Below the pieces are notes generated by a model. The model ran no database searches and was not told where the DNA came from. It saw nothing but the letters and a program-made list of their open reading frames with translations. A DNA stretch of 64,000 nt, from the NCBI RefSeq assembly GCF_054482595.1, contig NZ_CM137008.1. One strand, given 5' to 3'. How positions within the stretch are numbered: the first letter of the stretch is position 1; each line of letters begins with the position of its first letter. The position numbers and the translations under genes were made by a program. Shown in pieces: positions 5,451 through 63,752 of this stretch.

Positions 5451-6052
5451 GAAGGACTCGCGCTGGTTTCACGTTACTGGAAATGCTGGTGGCGATAGCC
5501 ATTTTTGCCTCACTGGCACTGATGGCGCAGCAGGTGACAAACGGCGTCACACGTGTGAATAGTGCCGTCGCCGATCACGATCAAAAACTAAACCTCATGC
5601 AGCAAACGATGAGTTTTCTGACCCACGATCTGACACAAATGATGCCGCGTCCGGTAAGAGGCGATCAGGGCCAGCGTGAATCAGCGTTACTGGCGGGCGC
5701 TGGCGTGCTGGCGTCTGAGAGTGAAGGAATGCGCTTTGTACGCGGCGGCGTGGTTAATCCGTTGATGCGTCTGCCGCGCAGTAATCTGCTCACCGTCGGT
5801 TACCGCATTCATGACGGTTATCTCGAACGGTTAGCCTGGCCGCTGACCGACGCAGCAGGCAGCGTGAAGCCAACAACGCAAAAGTTGATTCCGGCGGATT
5901 CGCTCCGTTTGCAGTTCTACGACGGCACACGCTGGCAGGAGAGCTGGTCATCACTTCAGGCGATCCCAGTGGCGGTACGCATGACCCTGCACTCGCCGCA
6001 ATGGGGCGAGATTGAACGCATCTGGTTGTTACGCGGGCCGCAATTATCATGA
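5447..6052 (+). CDS. gspJ: Minor pseudopilin GspJ
   Basis: GTGA overlap with gspI. N-terminus RAGFTLLEMLVAIAIF. Confidence 0.85.
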   Translation: MRRTRAGFTLLEMLVAIAIFASLALMAQQVTNGVTRVNSAVADHDQKLNLMQQTMSFLTHDLTQMMPRPVRGDQGQRESALLAGAGVLASESEGMRFVRGGVVNPLMRLPRSNLLTVGYRIHDGYLERLAWPLTDAAGSVKPTTQKLIPADSLRLQFYDGTRWQESWSSLQAIPVAVRMTLHSPQWGEIERIWLLRGPQLS

Positions 6053-8794: not shown

Positions 8795-8845
8795 TCCCCC
8801 AGACTTTATAAGCTAATTTTTTTCGTGAAGGTTATTGTCAGATCC

Positions 8846-8887: not shown

Positions 8888-8909
8888 TGGTGCCGGACTC
8901 GGAATCGAA
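8888..8909 (-). repeat. 22-nt partial copy of tRNA-Phe 3' end: distal att direct repeat of a pheV island
   Basis: The plus strand reads TGGTGCCGGACTCGGAATCGAA. This is the reverse complement of the tRNA-Phe acceptor/T-arm end ..TTCGATTCCGAGTCCGG(G)CACCA with one C missing. No D-arm or anticodon arm follows, so it is not a tRNA gene. Confidence 0.8.
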
Positions 8910-22508: not shown

Positions 22509-22721
22509 TTAACTCCGGGTCTTATGCTGCTCATTTGCCACAAAATCCAGGTGCGCCTGCTCAATCATTTCATTCAGCATTTTTTTTGGGGGGACACCAC
22601 GACTTCGGGCAATACTTTCAAGCTGTTTGTGGATTTTTCCGGACAGTTTCAGCGGGACGGAACCATCAGCACGTTCATCACGCCTTTTTTGTTGCTCCCT
22701 GGCACTTTTCAGTTCATCCAC
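22509..22721 (-). CDS. Small ribbon-helix-helix (CopG/ParG-like) protein, orphan
   Basis: 70 aa, GTG start. A basic tail is followed by VPLKLSGKIHKQLESIARSRGVPPKKMLNEMIEQ, a strand-helix-helix pattern. No partner ORF lies downstream. Confidence 0.4.
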   Translation of the reverse strand: MDELKSAREQQKRRDERADGSVPLKLSGKIHKQLESIARSRGVPPKKMLNEMIEQAHLDFVANEQHKTRS

Positions 22722-23896: not shown

Positions 23897-24060
23897 TCAA
23901 TATTGATGCTGTCTGCTTTTCACCATTTCATCCTCACTGACTGATGTTGTATTTTTGTGCAGCACTACAGATTTGCGTTTCTCTTTTAACTGGTCACGCT
24001 CTCCTTTGATATTCAGCGTGGTTGAGTGATGCAGCAGTTGATTCAGGATTGCTGTTGCCC
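23897..24060 (-). pseudogene. IS21-family istB 3' fragment
   Basis: The minus-strand translation AILNQLLHHSTTLNIKGERDQLKEKRK resembles the IstB C-terminus (AILDRLLHH..I.IKGESYRLKEK). The upstream part is out of frame. Confidence 0.45.
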
Positions 24061-24429
24061 TGCAACCACCATATCAACTTCTTCCCGGCATGCCGGCGCT
24101 GGTATCCAGGCCGGGTTTCGAAGTGAAGCGTTCCTGACGGACTCATTGATATCCGGGCCGGATGTAGTCATGCAGCATGGAACGTCTACCCGTATACACT
24201 GACGGCGTCCGGCCGTGTACATCTCTTCCGCGGTTCAGGGAGCGCTGTCGCCATGTACTTATTGTCACCAGGAGAGGCATGTACCGCAGCATGCCAGCTC
24301 AGCAGTGACAGGATGCCCTTAAGACATCCGTCATGGCTCAGTATGACGACGCCCCCGCTCTGCAGGTGAGCATGCGGGGCCGGGAGCAGCATTCCCGTAT
24401 TTTGCCGCACCTTCCGGAAGCAACCGGCA

Positions 24430-25032
24430 TCAGTTACGGTTATCGTCAACCGTTGTGCGGTATGCCAGGAGCACGTACTGATCCATCAGATCCGCCAGTG
24501 CTGCGTTCTGCTTCTGACGGTCGATGATCCATTCCCCCAGCTCTTTTTCTGATTTACGTTTCAGGTTCTCCGTCCAGTCGTCAAGGCTGTTTCCGGTCAT
24601 TAAATCAAGCCAGCAAAGCCAGACCAGTTTGAGGCGCAACTCAGTGCCACCAAACTGACGGAAGAGGCTGATCAGTTTATTTGCCAGAGAACGCCGCCTC
24701 AGACGTTCACATTCAGACAGCAGAATGCCTTCCAGCATCGGATGATGAACCAGCAGATGTTCGCTGGTGCATAAGTTCACCACCAGATCATCATCCAGGG
24801 GCGGCGTGGCCCGTTTGTCAGAGCCATAAATCAGCCGGTGCAGACTCCGGGGGACGATGGCAATCTCCGGTTTTTCACCATTGAATGACACCCACCCGGG
24901 CGTCAGATTATGGAAGTAGTGGATATTCGGATGACATACGCCCCAGGATACGGCGTGCCGGGTGAAGCCGGTCAGCCATTTCTGGTAGCTTTCGTGGAGC
25001 AGCTCGTAACGGGTCTGATACTGTGGTTTCAT
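24430..25032 (-). CDS. Hypothetical island protein downstream of alpA
   Basis: 200 aa from ATG 25032 (AGGA 8 nt upstream). I recognise no family. Confidence 0.5.
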   Translation of the reverse strand: MKPQYQTRYELLHESYQKWLTGFTRHAVSWGVCHPNIHYFHNLTPGWVSFNGEKPEIAIVPRSLHRLIYGSDKRATPPLDDDLVVNLCTSEHLLVHHPMLEGILLSECERLRRRSLANKLISLFRQFGGTELRLKLVWLCWLDLMTGNSLDDWTENLKRKSEKELGEWIIDRQKQNAALADLMDQYVLLAYRTTVDDNRN

Positions 25033-25125
25033 TTTCATATTCCTCACGGGGGATAACAGGCAGCAGAACGCCGCCGGCAGGCCGGAGATTGCGTCTGCTG
25101 TGGGTGAAGGGGCAGTGGTTAAAAA

Positions 25126-25335
25126 TTACGGACGGGACTGTGCAATACGCGCCTGCAGCCAGGCTTCCACTTCACTTTTCAGCCAGCGGGAGCTGCGGCC
25201 AAGTTTGATGGGAGCCGGAAAGGCCCCATCCTTGATGAGCTTGTAAAACCACTTATCGGTCAGGCCGGTCAGCTGAGTGATAAACGCCATATCGACCATC
25301 TGGTCATCCATCAGCGAAACTGGGGGGGGGGTCAT
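25126..25335 (-). CDS. alpA: AlpA-family (prophage CP4-57-type) HTH regulator
   Basis: 69 aa, FITQLTGLTDKWFYKLIKDGAFPAPIKLGRSSRWLKSEVEAWL. SD GGAGGAG lies 6 nt upstream of the ATG. Confidence 0.85.
   Translation of the reverse strand: MTPPPVSLMDDQMVDMAFITQLTGLTDKWFYKLIKDGAFPAPIKLGRSSRWLKSEVEAWLQARIAQSRP
25322..25331 (-). repeat. Homopolymeric C10 (G10 on plus strand) tract in codons 2-5 of alpA
   Basis: Counted directly: ATG ACC CCC CCC CCA GTT. Confidence 0.95.
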
Positions 25336-26409
25336 AAAAATCTCCTCCGGATGTTGTTAATCTCAACCGGCGTTGATGATGAAAACAACGCACCACCTTC
25401 ACCGGCATAACAACCGGGGAGAAACGTAAAAAATCAGTAGGGGAATATTCCTGCCAGGAGAGAAACGGTTGTGTACAGGCAATACAGGTTGTCTGTTTTG
25501 TCAGTGAAGCCGGTATAAACGGAAGATGATTTTGTGTTGCCGGAATATGGGATGGTATTTTGTCGTGACGGAATCAGTATTTTCAGTGATGATTATTACT
25601 GCGCAGGGGAGTACCGGAGAGAAACCACGCCCTGTACCTGCCAGAGCGGTGGTTTGTATTGACTGAACGGAAGATAAAGCGAGGTAAACACTGTTGTGGT
25701 GAGCGGAGAAGACTGAGATTATTCTCTGTAATTACAAACAACAGTGATCTTATCCGGTTTTTTTACCGTTACGGGTTTCAGGGGATCAATTTTATAGACC
25801 GGGGTAATGACCACGCCGTAATTTATGGAGAAAAGCGGGATCCAGCAATAAACGTCAGGATATTTCTGTGTCTCCGGAATACCTTTTGTGCCAGAGGCCA
25901 TCAGATCTTTAACGCTCACGAAAAATGACTTCCGCAGATCAAAAAAGTACTCGTTATATATCACATCCTTTGCCAGCAGGATGACTGCATTACCAACAGC
26001 CGATTTTACAGGTGTTTCATCAGGTGGATTATCGTGATTGTATATTGTTCTTTCTATATAAATAAAACAGGCATATTTCGTCTTCTCCCCGGATAGTTGC
26101 ATCTGGTATTCGCAAATGTCTTTGATATACCGACTTTCAACCCTTCCAATCATCTTATCCCGGCGATAGTGTCTTTTATGTTTCAGCGCGTACAGAACAC
26201 CATTTGAACTGTCAAACTCCAGGACACTTCTGGTGAAAAGTTTGTTTTCCCAGATCTCCAGACAATACTTCTCTGCACTGACGACATTGCGTTTGTGGGG
26301 AAGATTCCGTTGATACACTCCATTTAATAAGCGTGACTGCAGTTCGCCTGCAAGTTGATAGTAACAGTTAATGTCATTAAGGACAGGTGCTGTGGCGTTG
26401 GATTTGCCC

Positions 26410-27315
26410 CTATATTTCCAGACACCTGTTATCACTTAACCCATTACTGGCTTGCTGCCGTAGATATTCCCGTGGCGAGCGATAACCCAGTGCACTATGC
26501 GGATGCCATTCGTTATAATGCTCGAATGCCTCTGCAAGGTTCTTTGCTGCCGTTAACCCGTCTGGTTTGGGCATGACACTGATGTAGTCACGCTTTATCG
26601 TTTTCACGAAGCTCTCTGCTATGCCGTTACTCTCCGGACTCCGCACCGCCGTGTTCTTCGGTTCAAGCCCCAACATCCGGGCAAACTGCCGTGTTTCATT
26701 AGCCCGGTAGCATGAACCATTATCCGTCAGCCACTCTACTGGAGACGCCGGAAGCTCGTTGCCGAAACGGCGTTCCACCGCTCCCAGCATGACGTCCTGT
26801 ACTGTTTCACTGTTGAAGCCGCCCGTAGTGACCGCCCAGTGCAGTGCCTCACGGTCACAGCAGTCCAGCGCGAACGTGACTCGCAGTTTTTCTCCGTTAT
26901 CACAGCGGAACTCGAACCCGTCAGAGCACCATCGCTGATTACTTTCTTTCACAGCCACTCTGCCGGTATGTGCCCGTTTCGATGGCGGTACAGCGGGTTT
27001 TCGCTCAAGCAACAGCGCATTCTGGCGCATGATCCGGTAAATACGTTTGGCATTGATCGCAGGCATACCATCAAGTTCGGCCTGTCTGCGAAGCAGCGCC
27101 CATACCCGACGATAACCATATGTGGGCAGCTCTCCGATAACATGGTGTATACGGAGAAGCACATCCGTATCATCTGAGTGACGGCTGCGGCGACCATCTT
27201 TCCAGTCATCGGTTCGTCTGAGAATGACGTGCAACTGCGCACGCGACACCCGGAGACAACGGCTGACTAAGCTTACTCCCCATCCCCGGGCAATAAGGGC
27301 GCGTGCGCTATCCAC
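26410..27315 (-). CDS. insD: IS2 transposase OrfB (InsD)
   Basis: 301 aa with a DDE integrase core. It matches IS2 InsD as I recall it. Confidence 0.9.
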
Positions 27316-27638
27316 TTTTTTGCACGCCCGTATTCAACGGCTTCTTTAAGGAGTTCATTTTCCATCGTTTTTTTGCCGAGCAGGCGCTGGAGTTCTTTAA
27401 TCTGCTTCATGGCGGCAGCAAGTTCAGAGGCAGGAACGACCTGTTCTCCTGCGGCCACAGCAGTAAGACTTCCCTCCTGGTATTGCTTGCGCCAGAGAAA
27501 TAACTGGCTGGCTGCCACACCGTGTTGCCGGGCAACAAGGGAGACTGTCATTCCCGGTTCAAAACTCTGCTGAACAATAGCGATCTTTTCCTGTGTAGTA
27601 CGCCGTCTGCGTTTCTCCGGTCCTAAGACATCAATCAT
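27273..27638 (-). CDS. insC: IS2 OrfA (InsC)
   Basis: [41 protein letters not shown]..., 121 aa. It overlaps insD as required for -1 frameshifting. Confidence 0.9.
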
Positions 27639-28176
27639 CTGCTCTCCAATGACTAGTCTAAAAACTAGTATTAAGACTATCACTTAAATAAGTGATATTG
27701 GTTGTCTGGAGATTCAGGGGGCCAGTCTAGGCGTTGAGTAATGTGTTGATTACCTTAGAGCGCGAAAGTTTGTGGGTATGACAGTACTCATCCACAATTC
27801 GCAGTGTCTCATCACTGGTCATATTGAAAGTTATACGTGTTGTCATGATGAAGTTTTCTGTTAATCATACTGGTTGATATGCATAACATTTCATAAAAAA
27901 TACTGTTAATTCATATAATTGATTTTTTGACTGGTTTTATCCTCGTGTGGTGGAAAGCAGTATTACTGCCACTGTAGTCAGCATAAATCTATCACACAGA
28001 ACCACCGAAAATGAAGCATTGCTCAGGGGGAAGCTGCCACTCGTATGAGTTCTCTGAACCATGATAACCAGTATTTTTCGTTTTGGGTGATTTGTTTATC
28101 GTTACAGCTACATACAGTTCATGTACCATTAAAAAATAATAAAGGTTAATTAGTATTATTTATAGAAGTATGTTTA

Positions 28177-33826: not shown

Positions 33827-35590
<1,764 letters not shown>

Positions 35591-35859
35591 TACACCAGCG
35601 AAACCACACAGGTAGCTATTACCATATGTGGTAATACACTAGTTACAGGAAAAACATGCAGGTTCCGCAATACGTTGTGTGTTGCTGCTTAGTCAGGATC
35701 TTTTCTTCCATGCGAGATACGACAACACTTTTGAGGAAAGATGTTCACAACTGGTGGGGCGATTGCAACAGGTTTGTGCAGAACTCCCCCCGGATGGCAA
35801 TGCAGGGGGGAAAGGATTTTTCAGGTTGACCGCCCAGGTACATCAAATCAGTATGCTGC

Positions 35860-46953: not shown

Positions 46954-47590
46954 GTAAGCGGCTCGTCAGAACCGTATTGATATTTACTGAGCGGTCAGTT
47001 CAACTTTCCAGGGCAACAGATCACGTACCCGGTTTGCCGGCCAGTCCTGGATATGTTCAATGACGTAACGCAGCCATTTTCTGGCTCCTCATTGTTCAGA
47101 CGGCATGTGCCGATCAGCGAGTACAACACCGCCGCATGTTCGCCACCGTTGTCGGAACCCACGAAGAGCCAGTTTTTCCGGCCTACGGCCACTCCCCGTA
47201 AGGCGTTCTCTGCGATGTTGTTGTCGATTTCCACCCAGCCATTGCTGCAGTACACATTCAGGCCATCCCACTGTTTCAGCAGGTATGCGAACGCTTTTGC
47301 CGTATCCGAGTGACGCGACAGTGTTTTCATCTGAGTCTGTATCCAGTCATACAGTGACTGCATCAGTGGCGCAGCTCTGGCTTTTCTTGCTGCCAGACGC
47401 TGTTCTGCTGAACATCCCCGGACTTCTGCCTCGGTGGCATACAGTTCACCGATACGCTGCAGGGCTTCCGTGGTGATGTCGGTTGGCACTCTTACATGCA
47501 CATCGTGGATTCTTCTCCGGGAATGAGCCATACACGCGGCTTCCGTTACTCTGCCGGATTCGTATAACGCCTAAGCATCGGCCTGAAGCA
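46954..47590 (-). mobile_element. IS66-family right-end fragment carrying tnpC 3' part (pseudogene)
   Basis: The plus strand starts GTAAGCGG at 46954. The minus-strand translation reads ..[30 protein letters not shown]...[25 protein letters not shown], the IS66 TnpC C-terminal half. A frameshift near 47070 alters the last ~30 aa. Confidence 0.75.
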
Positions 47591-56404: not shown

Positions 56405-57191
56405 CGGGTGTTCATCACATAACGGTATAGGGCATCATTCAGCGGAGCCATTAACTGGCAGCACGCGTCAACCCAGTTGGAGAGTAATGCACGGCTCAGC
56501 TCGACGCCCTAACGGGCAAAGATTTCACTCTGACGGTACAGTGGCAGATGTTCGCAGTATTTCCCGTTAACACACGGGCAAGCAAGCCGGGACCTGCGAT
56601 ACCACGCTCTATCGGACGGGACGGCGCCGGTGCTTCAACAATACAGTCACATTTTGTACAGGCTTTTTTTACCCGAACAGTGCGGATCACTTTCAGGGCA
56701 CTGCTCACCAGTTCCAGCTGCTCAGCACTGACTTCCCCCAGATAATCCAGCTCACTGCCACACTCCTGGCAACAACTTTCTTCAGGTTCCAGGCGGTGTA
56801 TTTCACGGGGAAGATGTGCCGGTAACGGACGACGATGACGTGACTGTCGCAACTGGCGGGGAACCTGCGGGTCATCCTCTCGCCCACTGTAACGATCGCT
56901 GTCCTGTTCTCGTTGTTTCAGTTGGGACTCAGCCTGTTCAACCTCACGCTGCAGTTTTTCAGAACGGGTACCGAACAGCATCCGGCGCAGTTTTTCTATC
57001 TGAGCCCGAAGATGTTCTATTTCCCGTTCCTCCTCTTCGATCTTTTCTTCGGCGCGGGCCAGCGCAGAGCGCAGGAAGGCCTCCGTCTCTTCAACCAGAC
57101 TCAGTTGCTGGTCTTTCTGACGGAGGGCTTCAGCCTGCTCAGAGAGCAACCTTTCCAGTTCTGCAATGCGAATGAGGTATTTCTGACTCAT
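56405..57191 (-). pseudogene. IS66 tnpC, 5' half, frameshifted and with in-frame TAG
   Basis: 231 aa are in frame (coiled-coil N-terminus, CCQECGSELDYLGE zinc motif). GKYCEHLPLYRQSEIFAR*GVELS.. then continues in another frame. Confidence 0.75.
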
Positions 57192-62103: not shown

Positions 62104-62433
62104 ATGACCAGGATGCGATGGACGCTTGACCAGAAAAAACATCACGTTGCTGCATGGCGTGCCAGTGGTCTTACACGCCAGCAATACTGTGAACTCAACG
62201 ATATTCCCTTCACATCACTTCGCGAATGGCCGCAGGATGTCGCAAAAGCTGAACGCCGGGCAAATGAACCGACCGTTCTTCCCGTTCATATTGCGCCACC
62301 ACTGCATGCTGATGTATCACAGCCCGTCACGAATGAGCCAGTCACGCTCTTCCTCCCCGGCGGAGTACGGATGTGCTGTCAGCCGTCACAACTTACCGAT
62401 GTCTTCAGGGCGCTCAAATGTGCTCAGTCCTGA
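62104..62433 (+). CDS. IS66 OrfA
   Basis: 109 aa, WTLDQKKHHVAAWRASGLTRQQYCELNDIPFTSLREW. Confidence 0.7.
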   Translation: MTRMRWTLDQKKHHVAAWRASGLTRQQYCELNDIPFTSLREWPQDVAKAERRANEPTVLPVHIAPPLHADVSQPVTNEPVTLFLPGGVRMCCQPSQLTDVFRALKCAQS

Positions 62434-62779
62434 TAATGTCTTCATCGCGATTAAACCTGCTGATATGCGCCGGGGCATCGACACACTGACGCAGTATATA
62501 CAGGATGAACTCAGGTCGACATGGCATGAGGGAGCCGCCTTCGTCTTTGTTAACAAAGCCCGTTCGCGTATCAAAGTTCTGCGCTGGGATAAACACGGGG
62601 TGTGGTTGTGTACCCGTCGTCTGCATAAAGGCAGCTTCCGCTGGCCACGTACAAATGACGTTGCCTGGCACCTCACTCCCGACGAGTTTAATTGGCTTAT
62701 TGCCGGTGTTGCCTGGCAGCAAGTTAAGGGACATGACCTGACGAAATGGGTCTGGCTGAATGAAGCTGAACTGCGTGCT
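62420..62779 (+). CDS. IS66 OrfB (no separate stop; frame runs on into tnpC)
   Basis: GTG 62420, VLSPDNVFIAIKPADMRRGIDTLTQYIQDEL...VLRWDKHGVWLCTRRL. The 3' limit is approximate. Confidence 0.55.
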
Positions 62780-63752
62780 ATGGCACTTGCCATGGTGCAA
62801 AAAGTCATGTCGGAGAATGCCGAAAAAGAGCGGGAATTACTGGAGAAAAGCCGGCGCATCCAGCTTCTGGACGAAATGCTGAAACTGGTTCGTCAACAGC
62901 GCTTCGGTAAAAATGTGAGACGCTGGCTGGTATGCAACGCTCCCTGTTCGAAGAGGATGTTGATGCCGATATCGCCGCGCTCACCGCACATCTGGATAAA
63001 CTGCTCCCGCAATCCCCTGAAGAAGACGAAAAAGCGCCCCGTTCATGCCCGATACGCAAACCCTTACCGGTCCATCTTCCACGGGTGGAAAAAATTATCC
63101 AGCCGGACACTGACCATTGCCCTGAATGTGACGAGCTGCTGCACTATATCCGTGATGCGGTGAGTGAAAAGCTGGAGTATATTCCCGCTCACTTCGTGGT
63201 GAACCGTTATGTCCGTCCGCAATACAGTTGTCCCTGTTGCCTGAAGGTGTTTAGCGGTGAAATGCCGGCACATATCCTCCCGAAAAGTGCCGTTGAGCCG
63301 TCAGTCATCGCACAGGTGATCATCAATAAATACAGTGACCACCAGCCTCTGTATCGCCAGCAACAGATCTTTGCCCGTTCAGATGTCGGGCTGCCCGTCA
63401 GTTCGATGGCTGATATGGTTGGCGCGTCGGGAGCCACATTATCCCCCCTGGCGGCGTTACTCCATCGCGAGTTGATAAGCCGTCAGGTGGTGCATGCAGA
63501 TGAGACTACCCTGAAGATCCTGAACACGAAGAAAGGCGGTAAATCCTGCTCCTGTTATCTGTGGGCATACGTCAGTGGAGAAAGGACAGGACCGTCAGTT
63601 GTGTGTTTCGACTGCCGGACCGGACGTAGCCATGAGTATCCTGAAAACTGGCTTCAGAGCTGGGTCGGGACACTGGTTGTTGACGGACATAAAGCTTACC
63701 GGACTCTGGCAAACAAAGTGCCGGAGATCACGCTGGCCGGATGCTGGGCCCA
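62780..63752 (+). pseudogene. IS66 tnpC, frameshifted (~62905) and truncated
   Basis: ..LVRQQRFGKN shifts frame to MQRSLFEEDVDADIAAL...CPECDELLHYI...YSDHQPLYRQQQIF...VHADETTLKIL. It ends at LAGCWAH. Confidence 0.7.

Follow-up and report, generated by a model that had tools for sequence, protein, structure and literature searches.

A length-variable poly-C tract directly behind the start codon of an AlpA-family gene in an Escherichia coli genomic island

RESULTS

A C10 tract at the start of an AlpA-family coding sequence

The DNA analyzed here is a stretch of 64,000 nucleotides (nt) from contig NZ_CM137008.1 (NCBI RefSeq assembly GCF_054482595.1), referred to below as the window. On its minus strand, positions 25126 to 25335 contain an open reading frame (ORF) for a 69-amino-acid (aa) helix-turn-helix (HTH) protein of the AlpA family, whose codons 2 to 5 (ACC CCC CCC CCA, specifying T-P-P-P) hold an uninterrupted run of ten C. 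This slippage-prone homopolymer, read as G10 on the plus strand (25322 to 25331), lies directly behind the start codon ATG1 (25333 to 25335) and a single A (25332). The Shine-Dalgarno (SD) sequence GGAGGAG (25342 to 25348) stands 6 nt 5' of ATG1. From 25348 to 25321, the minus strand reads GGAGGAG-ATTTTT-ATG-A-CCCCCCCCCC-A; the minus-strand sequence through SD, ATG, and C10 is CCGGAGGAGATTTTTATGACCCCCCCCCCAGTTTCGCTGATGGATGACCAG, and the product begins MTPPPVSLMDDQMVDM, with MTPPPVSLMDDQMVDMAFITQ as its N-terminal start. Reading the sequence confirmed this arrangement as given in the initial annotation, which had proposed a slipped-strand ON/OFF switch of an island regulator. No other G or C run in the window exceeds 6 nt, and base composition alone predicts approximately 0.1 G or C runs of at least 10 nt in 64 kb. 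It is thus a homopolymer of at least 8 nt in the 5' part of a coding sequence, where its length sets the reading frame.

The encoded protein matches the Phage_AlpA profile (PF05930; E = 4.2e-9; 36.6 bits against a cut-off of 21) over residues 13 to 60 and likewise scores above the cut-off of the HTH_17 profile. Weak sequence matches to structures in the PDB were found for 8c3t (AlpA family, E = 2.4e-3) and the TorI excisionase 1z4h (E = 6.4e-3). An AlphaFold2 model based on 30 homologues, of moderate confidence (mean predicted local distance difference test [pLDDT] score of 74.8), contains strands at residues 13 to 15 and 50 to 52 and helices at residues 16 to 23, 27 to 36, and 53 to 67. Model and sequence matches together suggest a small, single-domain protein with an excisionase-type winged-helix fold. 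Residues 1 to 5 have pLDDT values below 50, and residues 1 to 8 lie outside the predicted fold, which begins at residue 13. The name alpA is used here for the window gene as a family-level label (PF05930) only.

Homologues that are 81 to 86% identical, nearly all of them 68 aa long, occur in Klebsiella, Enterobacter, Citrobacter, Cronobacter, Kosakonia, Pectobacterium, Dickeya, Hafnia, Salmonella, and others. Across an alignment of 30 homologues from at least 10 genera, M1 is invariant, as are L8, D11, D15, and M16, and T2 is conserved in at least 90%. Codon 9, an in-frame ATG in the window (ATG9; 25309 to 25311), is restricted to the E. coli clade as an ATG and encodes Leu in all other genera examined. 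The predicted duplex with the anti-SD sequence is near-ideal for ATG1 (-9.5 kcal/mol), absent for ATG9 (+0.9 kcal/mol, no SD), and weak (-3.1 kcal/mol each) for the two further in-frame candidates, ATG13 (25297 to 25299) and ATG16 (25288 to 25290), the latter being invariant in the family and the last possible start ahead of helix 1. Judged from sequence conservation, ATG1 is the native start of the family, because M1 is invariant, the homologues measure about 68 aa, codon 9 is Leu elsewhere, and only ATG1 has a strong SD. Among E. coli paralogues, codon 2 (25330 to 25332) varies to an unusual degree (T, K, N, A, I, or L), the rest of the protein being at least 91% identical; outside E. coli, this codon nearly always specifies T.

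No sigma-70-like promoter between the neighboring YagM-family gene and alpA was detected in a consensus scan, and no Rfam element matched positions 24000 to 27000 at an E value of 1 or below. Sequestration of the SD by the C tract, suggested by a G8/CTCCTCC stem that the scan flagged on the plus strand, was considered and rejected. On the mRNA, pairing between SD and tract is weak and is predicted for the ancestral ACCACCCC allele (described below) as well, and the minimum free energy (MFE) amounts to -34.0 kcal/mol at every tract length from C7 to C13. Likewise rejected was a hairpin that would bury ATG9, ATG13, and ATG16 and thereby enforce translational coupling, with an MFE of -18.5 kcal/mol that is not significant relative to shuffled sequences (z = -0.62).

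Tract length differs among natural alleles

To compare alleles, 551 nt around the tract were used as a query, yielding 27 complete E. coli genomes with at least 99% identity that differ essentially in match span alone. The span is 551 nt in six genomes, 552 nt in one, 550 nt in five, 549 nt in 13, and 548 nt in two. One representative of each span class was read base by base, which verified C10, C11, C9, C8, and a variant in which C8 directly follows the ATG (ATG-C8), respectively. The 27 genomes accordingly comprise six C10, one C11 (strain 4FM), five C9, 13 C8, and two ATG-C8 alleles. The ATG-C8 variant lacks the A behind the start codon and is in frame, encoding MPPPVSL. Its two carriers, L008 (AR13438, 2266 to 2280) and H67 (VTB96959v, assigned from match span and identity only), lie inside the out-of-frame A-C8 clade, the A having been lost or converted.

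Additional states were found beyond the complete genomes. Scanning metagenome contigs returned 23 matches, 13 of which read ACCACCCC, with ATCACCCC in two, ACCACCCT in one, A-C7 in two, A-C8 in three, and A-C9 in two. ATG-C6 occurs on the same background in two NCBI genome assemblies, and ATG-C10 was deduced from one database protein sequence. The tract polymorphism is real and amounts to at least seven states on near-identical backgrounds. The expectation that the tract is hypermutable is borne out by the range from C7 to C11 together with ATG-C6, ATG-C8, and ATG-C10, and the proposed comparison of alleles thus revealed variation among strains on otherwise conserved sequence, not invariance.

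At the protein level, the Prokaryotic Genome Annotation Pipeline (PGAP) starts the out-of-frame alleles at ATG9, giving the 61-aa product WP_001341133.1. This exact product is present in 790 blocks of a large index of public assemblies, compared to 155 for the in-frame 69-aa C10 product. C10 is not an assembly oddity of one record, since six complete genomes share an identical 551-nt sequence that includes C10 and these 155 blocks contain the 69-aa protein in exact form.

A C10 run directly behind an ATG triplet was also observed on metagenome contig L059 (around position 8802), in an intergenic region downstream of the island GTPase gene. No ORF of at least 30 aa starts there on that strand, and the window has no such run at the equivalent place.

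Tract length sets the fate of the SD-driven reading frame

Because ATG1 is the native start, tract length decides whether the SD-driven ORF reaches the HTH domain, and most natural poly-C alleles are consequently out of frame. With C9, translation from ATG1 yields MTPPQFR and then stops (7 codons), and with C11 it yields MTPPPSFADG before the stop (10 codons). The frame arithmetic of the initial annotation, including the in-frame ATG at codon 9, was recomputed and found to be correct. Two stop codons are involved. The TGA at 25311 to 25313 closes the 7-codon leader of the C9 class (C9, C6, or C12) and overlaps ATG9 by 1 nt as TGATG (-1 nt; cgcTGATGg). The TGA at 25304 to 25306 closes the 9- or 10-codon leader of C8 or C11 alleles, 5 nt past ATG9 and 4 nt before ATG13.

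These distances are relevant for translational coupling. In E. coli reporters, termination-reinitiation works at -1-nt overlaps, is reduced by 5 to 70% at +2 nt, and almost disappears at 38 nt, with a dependence on an SD that differs from gene to gene (PMC6728339, PMC10666635). The out-of-frame alpA alleles resemble TGATG- and ATGA-coupled E. coli pairs (PMC6728339, PMC10666635) in the TGATG overlap of the C9 class and the stop of C8 and C11 alleles 4 nt before ATG13, which are distances at which reinitiation works in reporter assays. However, they are an accidental frameshift product instead of an evolved gene pair, and the coupling is predicted only. An SD at the downstream start is helpful, though not universal, in E. 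coli pairs; ATG9 has none (+0.9 kcal/mol), and that of ATG13 and ATG16 is weak (-3.1 kcal/mol). According to the structural model, a protein initiated at residue 9 or 13 would retain every predicted fold element. Leaky reinitiation yielding a shortened protein from out-of-frame alleles is therefore plausible, given that the off-frame stops adjoin in-frame ATGs and that residues 1 to 8 lie outside the predicted fold; a leaky low state produced in this way appears at least as likely as OFF. For the proposed ON/OFF switch, this means that tract length indeed sets whether the SD-driven ORF reaches the HTH, but that a clean OFF state is unproven, as the off-frame stops lie next to in-frame ATGs.

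Tract length affects the gene calls as well. In C9-class alleles, no stop codon separates the alpA frame from an SD-less ATG farther upstream, which accounts for the database gene calls of 85 to 115 aa. Several paralogues are likewise open in this direction (in the window, the stretch concerned is 25336 to 25420), and gene callers extend such frames to SD-less upstream starts. Since consecutive prolines stall the ribosome, the T-P-P-P N terminus of the C10 allele should require EF-P.

The tract is recent, and a second poly-C tract varies nearby

The nearest tract-free alleles (uropathogenic E. coli [UPEC] 536, SW07096, and others; 98% identical) read ACCACCCC, i.e., ATG ACC ACC CCA. Their protein begins with MTTP instead of MTPPP and is identical to the window protein from residue 5 onward. 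As the nearest tract-free allele reads ACC-ACC-CCA (MTTP), the tract is, by this comparison, derived and recent, with an A-to-C change followed by expansion. Such a change would join C2 and C4 into C7, a state present in metagenomes, after which slippage would lengthen or shorten the run. A separate paralogue background also carries A-C7 at the same site, and an ACC-ACC-CCN start is evidently predisposed to tract formation.

Across 2.9 kb of flanking sequence, the poly-C alleles differ at only about 10 single nucleotide polymorphism (SNP) positions. One SNP is common to the C10 and C11 alleles, another is common to all C8 alleles, and the five C9 genomes share one arrangement of an IS3-family insertion sequence (IS). 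Tract length is thus mostly inherited within SNP/IS lineages, with a handful of changes, because the SNPs and the IS3 arrangement group with it. This bears directly on the slipped-strand switch put forward initially: the slippage hotspot exists in nature, but rapid, reversible switching is not supported, as the lengths largely track these lineages, which points indirectly to slow change.

Within a small hypothetical ORF, at a distance of 2.7 kb on the downstream side of alpA, a second poly-C tract, GAAGTCGTGGAG-Cn-A7, was noted in the window and in relatives L009, L010, L014, L016 to L018 (around position 5718), L042, and L048. In the window, its site is a C6-A8 sequence on the minus strand (22580 to 22593; plus-strand T8 at 22580 to 22587 and G6 at 22588 to 22593) inside a 70-aa ORF (22509 to 22721, minus strand). 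No Pfam family matches this ORF, and its annotation is either hypothetical protein or partial pseudogene. Among 15 complete genomes of the alpA-C8/ATG-C8 clade, the second tract measures C9 in five, C10 in eight, and C11 in two, and in draft and metagenome contigs it ranges from C8 to C11. It therefore varies freely in a clade whose alpA tract stays at 8 C. The rate of indels rises exponentially with run length (PMC8510543), which agrees with a second tract that is variable and an alpA tract that is fixed in this clade, and which by the same logic places the C10 of the window in a more mutable range. The behavior of the second tract further shows that such variation arises in the island without special selection.

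The gene lies in an island backbone without an integrase nearby

The most likely setting of alpA is the conserved backbone of an E. coli genomic island of the pheV/pheU type. The left flank of the window is formed by a type II secretion operon from gspE to yghD. Directly after yghD, at the end of this operon, the 22-nt sequence TGGTGCCGGACTCGGAATCGAA is found (around 8888 to 8909), which resembles the 3' end of tRNA-Phe in reverse orientation and which would then be the att-type end repeat of pheV/pheU islands. ARAGORN detected no complete tRNA in the window.

On one side, alpA is accompanied by YagK/YfjJ, zinc-ribbon, Gp2-like, Hha, and YagM-family genes, and on the other by an ORF of 202 to 205 aa, ATPase remnants, a GTPase gene, Ag43, DUF932, antirestriction, RadC, and CbeA/CbtA genes. 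The backbone around the alpA-like gene recurs in many enterobacterial islands, and the module around alpA itself is decayed, with pseudogenes and IS elements. The neighboring ORFs of 205 and 238 aa have no Pfam match; the upstream neighbor is listed as PF27701/UCP007319 in precomputed annotation of related loci and assigned to the YagM family by RefSeq. An IS3-family orfA/orfB pair (26410 to 27683) interrupts this YagM-family gene (25719 to 26435), leaving 238 aa compared to 263 aa in the Santai locus and most relatives. The junction between IS3 and the YagM-family gene was found in one piece in no complete genome of the collection, and draft GCA_974491075.1 (L026) is equally shortened. Beyond ISEc38 (33855 to 35474), positions 35600 to 64000 contain metabolic cargo, including regulators of the GntR and DeoR types, aconitase B, a citrate-lyase-like aldolase, a phosphotransferase system (PTS) EIIBC component, an aminotransferase, and an M20 peptidase, among IS66 fragments (46995 to 47531, 56496 to 57191, and 62126 to 63163); no integrase was found in this part.

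The window protein shares with AlpA of CP4-57 (K-12) and with the AlpA master regulators of phage-inducible chromosomal islands (PICIs) its PF05930 domain, a length of about 70 aa, a single winged helix, and a position on an integrative island (PMC11773190). However, the alpA genes of CP4-57 and PICIs adjoin an integrase gene and control excision or the PICI cycle (PMC11773190), whereas the window gene lies between the YagM-family gene and the hypothetical gene of 202 to 205 aa, with no integrase within reach. No integrase ORF is present in the 64-kb window, the Santai locus has no intact integrase but only a 160-nt frameshifted fragment approximately 16 kb away, and no integrase lies within 10 kb of the Enterobacter orthologues. 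The suggestion that this gene controls integrase and excision functions is hence not supported at these loci; the gene does not adjoin an island integrase on which it could act as in CP4-57 or PICIs, although it may act at a distance. The label "AlpA family" spans functionally different subfamilies (PMC11773190).

DISCUSSION

The reading that we favor, with somewhat better than even confidence, is that the poly-C tract is a recently arisen slippage hotspot that creates heritable high- and low-expression alleles of an island-backbone regulator under weak or no selection. Alleles with C7, C10, or ATG-C8 would produce the full-length protein from ATG1 and its strong SD, with the T-P-P-P N terminus in the case of C10. 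In the C8, C9, and C11 alleles, which form the natural majority, ribosomes would load at SD-ATG1 regardless of tract length but would read only a leader of 7 to 10 codons, whose stop either overlaps ATG9 or lies within a few nucleotides of both ATG9 and ATG13. These alleles would then produce the HTH protein only via termination-reinitiation or weak, SD-less initiation, presumably at a much lower level and without its 8 to 12 disordered N-terminal residues. The net result would be heritable and, in principle, reversible high/low (possibly off) alleles of an AlpA-family regulator. The sequences show the polymorphism of the tract, its derived origin, the start codon of the family, the consequences for the frame, and the SD strengths, and we infer the effect on expression, the reinitiation, and an absence of adaptive tuning. 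A mutational hotspot on which selection acts weakly or not at all accounts for the population pattern better than a tuned contingency switch does, since the lengths follow SNP/IS lineages, the second tract varies likewise, and the surrounding module is decayed.

Several points weigh against this reading. The low or off state of the out-of-frame alleles is read from their sequence, and, as ATG9 has no SD, reinitiation could be negligible, which would leave these alleles truly OFF. The frame-restoring ATG-C8 is present in two genomes of the out-of-frame C8 clade, and the ratio of C10 to C11 in the C10 clade is 6:1, even though the second tract varies freely over C9 to C11. Either observation might point to selection favoring the in-frame state, but the counts are too low to tell. 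In addition, lineage-linked lengths are compatible with switching at about 1e-5 to 1e-4 per generation.

It is unlikely, but worth weighing, that the tract is a genuine contingency locus, kept because stochastic, reversible ON/OFF or high/low switching is advantageous, for example, as bet-hedging of island expression or stability. The tract does occupy the classical phase-variable site, at the 5' end of a coding sequence just past the ATG, and its natural alleles span at least seven length or sequence states on one background; however, these lengths track lineages, with all five genomes of the same IS3 arrangement at C9 and 13 genomes at C8. An independent paralogue background has a C7 run at the same site, but the tract is of recent origin and most alleles lack it, ACCACCCC being the common state (13 of the 23 metagenome matches). 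The ATG-C8 variants would suit selection for the restored frame, yet the nearby second tract varies as much or more, so that special selection is unneeded. The strong conservation of the family across genera implies that the protein is functional in general, but no nearby target such as an integrase is found in the window, Santai, or Enterobacter loci, and a literature search for an alpA poly-C switch in E. coli found no publication. E. coli is mismatch-repair proficient, and simple-repeat switches are rare in it. Adaptive phase variation is unproven.

Homopolymeric-tract phase variation of 5' coding regions is known from Neisseria meningitidis, Bordetella pertussis, and others (PMC5084427, PMC1891110, PMC2831843). 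The alpA tract resembles these in being a G/C homopolymer of at least 8 nt right behind the start, in that a 1-nt change truncates the ORF, and in differing in length between strains on conserved flanks. It differs in its host, E. coli being mismatch-repair proficient and poor in simple repeats, and in its recent, derived origin and its restriction to a minority of alleles, with a length that is largely lineage-linked. Furthermore, in-frame ATGs are placed for reinitiation, such that OFF may be leaky, and switching within a clone is only putative. The poly-C run of Mycobacterium tuberculosis glpK, which undergoes reversible frameshifts (bioRxiv 10.1101/717272), is likewise a coding homopolymer in a gene that does not encode a surface antigen, with heritable variants as natural polymorphism among isolates. 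The glpK variants described there are reversible loss-of-function alleles for which both the phenotype (drug tolerance) and reversion were demonstrated, whereas the alpA variants are candidates for such behavior; moreover, the alpA tract occupies dispensable N-terminal codons and the glpK tract an essential part of the protein.

More doubtful still is a true simple-repeat switch in some E. coli lineages, in which C9, C10, and C11 would toggle between full-length synthesis and a reinitiation-dependent trickle and the second tract would make the switch multi-locus. If true, it would give rise to heritable subpopulations with unequal expression or stability of an island encoding Ag43 and the CbtA/CbeA toxin-antitoxin system. 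Phase variation in E. coli is attributed almost wholly to invertible elements and to Dam methylation.

There is an equally small chance that the tract is functionally silent, with initiation at codon 9, 13, or 16 whatever its length and the C run serving as a 5' leader. This would agree with the PGAP start at ATG9 in out-of-frame alleles (61 aa) and with a Pfam domain that begins at residue 13 behind predicted disorder at residues 1 to 5, but it is at odds with the Leu at codon 9 in other genera, the invariant M1, the T2 conserved in at least 90%, and the conserved length of about 68 aa, as well as with the SD strengths (+0.9 kcal/mol at ATG9, i.e., no SD, against -9.5 kcal/mol at ATG1). Out-of-frame alleles make up most of the natural poly-C alleles, and their ORF has not decayed further, which might seem to argue for a downstream start; this is uninformative, however, because the poly-C alleles are at least 99% identical and very recent. 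The caveat attached to the switch at the outset, a leader with a start at codon 9 regardless of tract length, is disfavored on the same grounds of Leu at codon 9 and no SD.

Finally, sequencing or assembly errors at the homopolymer, with no biological polymorphism behind them, are a very improbable source of the length differences: homopolymers of 8 to 11 G/C are error-prone in long-read-only assemblies, and the C11 genome (4FM) is one isolated case, but assembly error is not the main cause because equal lengths recur in independent assemblies of one SNP/IS lineage (C9 in five, C8 in 13, C10 in six), short-read metagenome contigs show C7, C8, and C9, and the assembly index holds 790 blocks with the 61-aa protein and 155 with the 69-aa protein.

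Returning to the favored slippage hotspot, the tract is apparently an undescribed example of a well-known type of feature, and an unselected hotspot fits the present evidence equally well or better than a switch. For annotation, both the tract length and the gene caller affect the size assigned to the same gene (61, 68, 69, 85, 92, 93, or 115 aa; proteins P0001 to P0017), and homopolymer errors at the tract would flip the gene call. For the biology of phase variation, the locus is a candidate at most; a proven simple-repeat switch would be noteworthy, as E. coli has very few of them. The poly-C alleles of alpA occur in hundreds of sequenced E. coli. If the tract alters expression, they would constitute a natural, easily genotyped C7-to-C11 allelic series of a conserved, uncharacterized island-backbone regulator, and the comparison of isogenic tract lengths would reveal what the AlpA-like protein controls.

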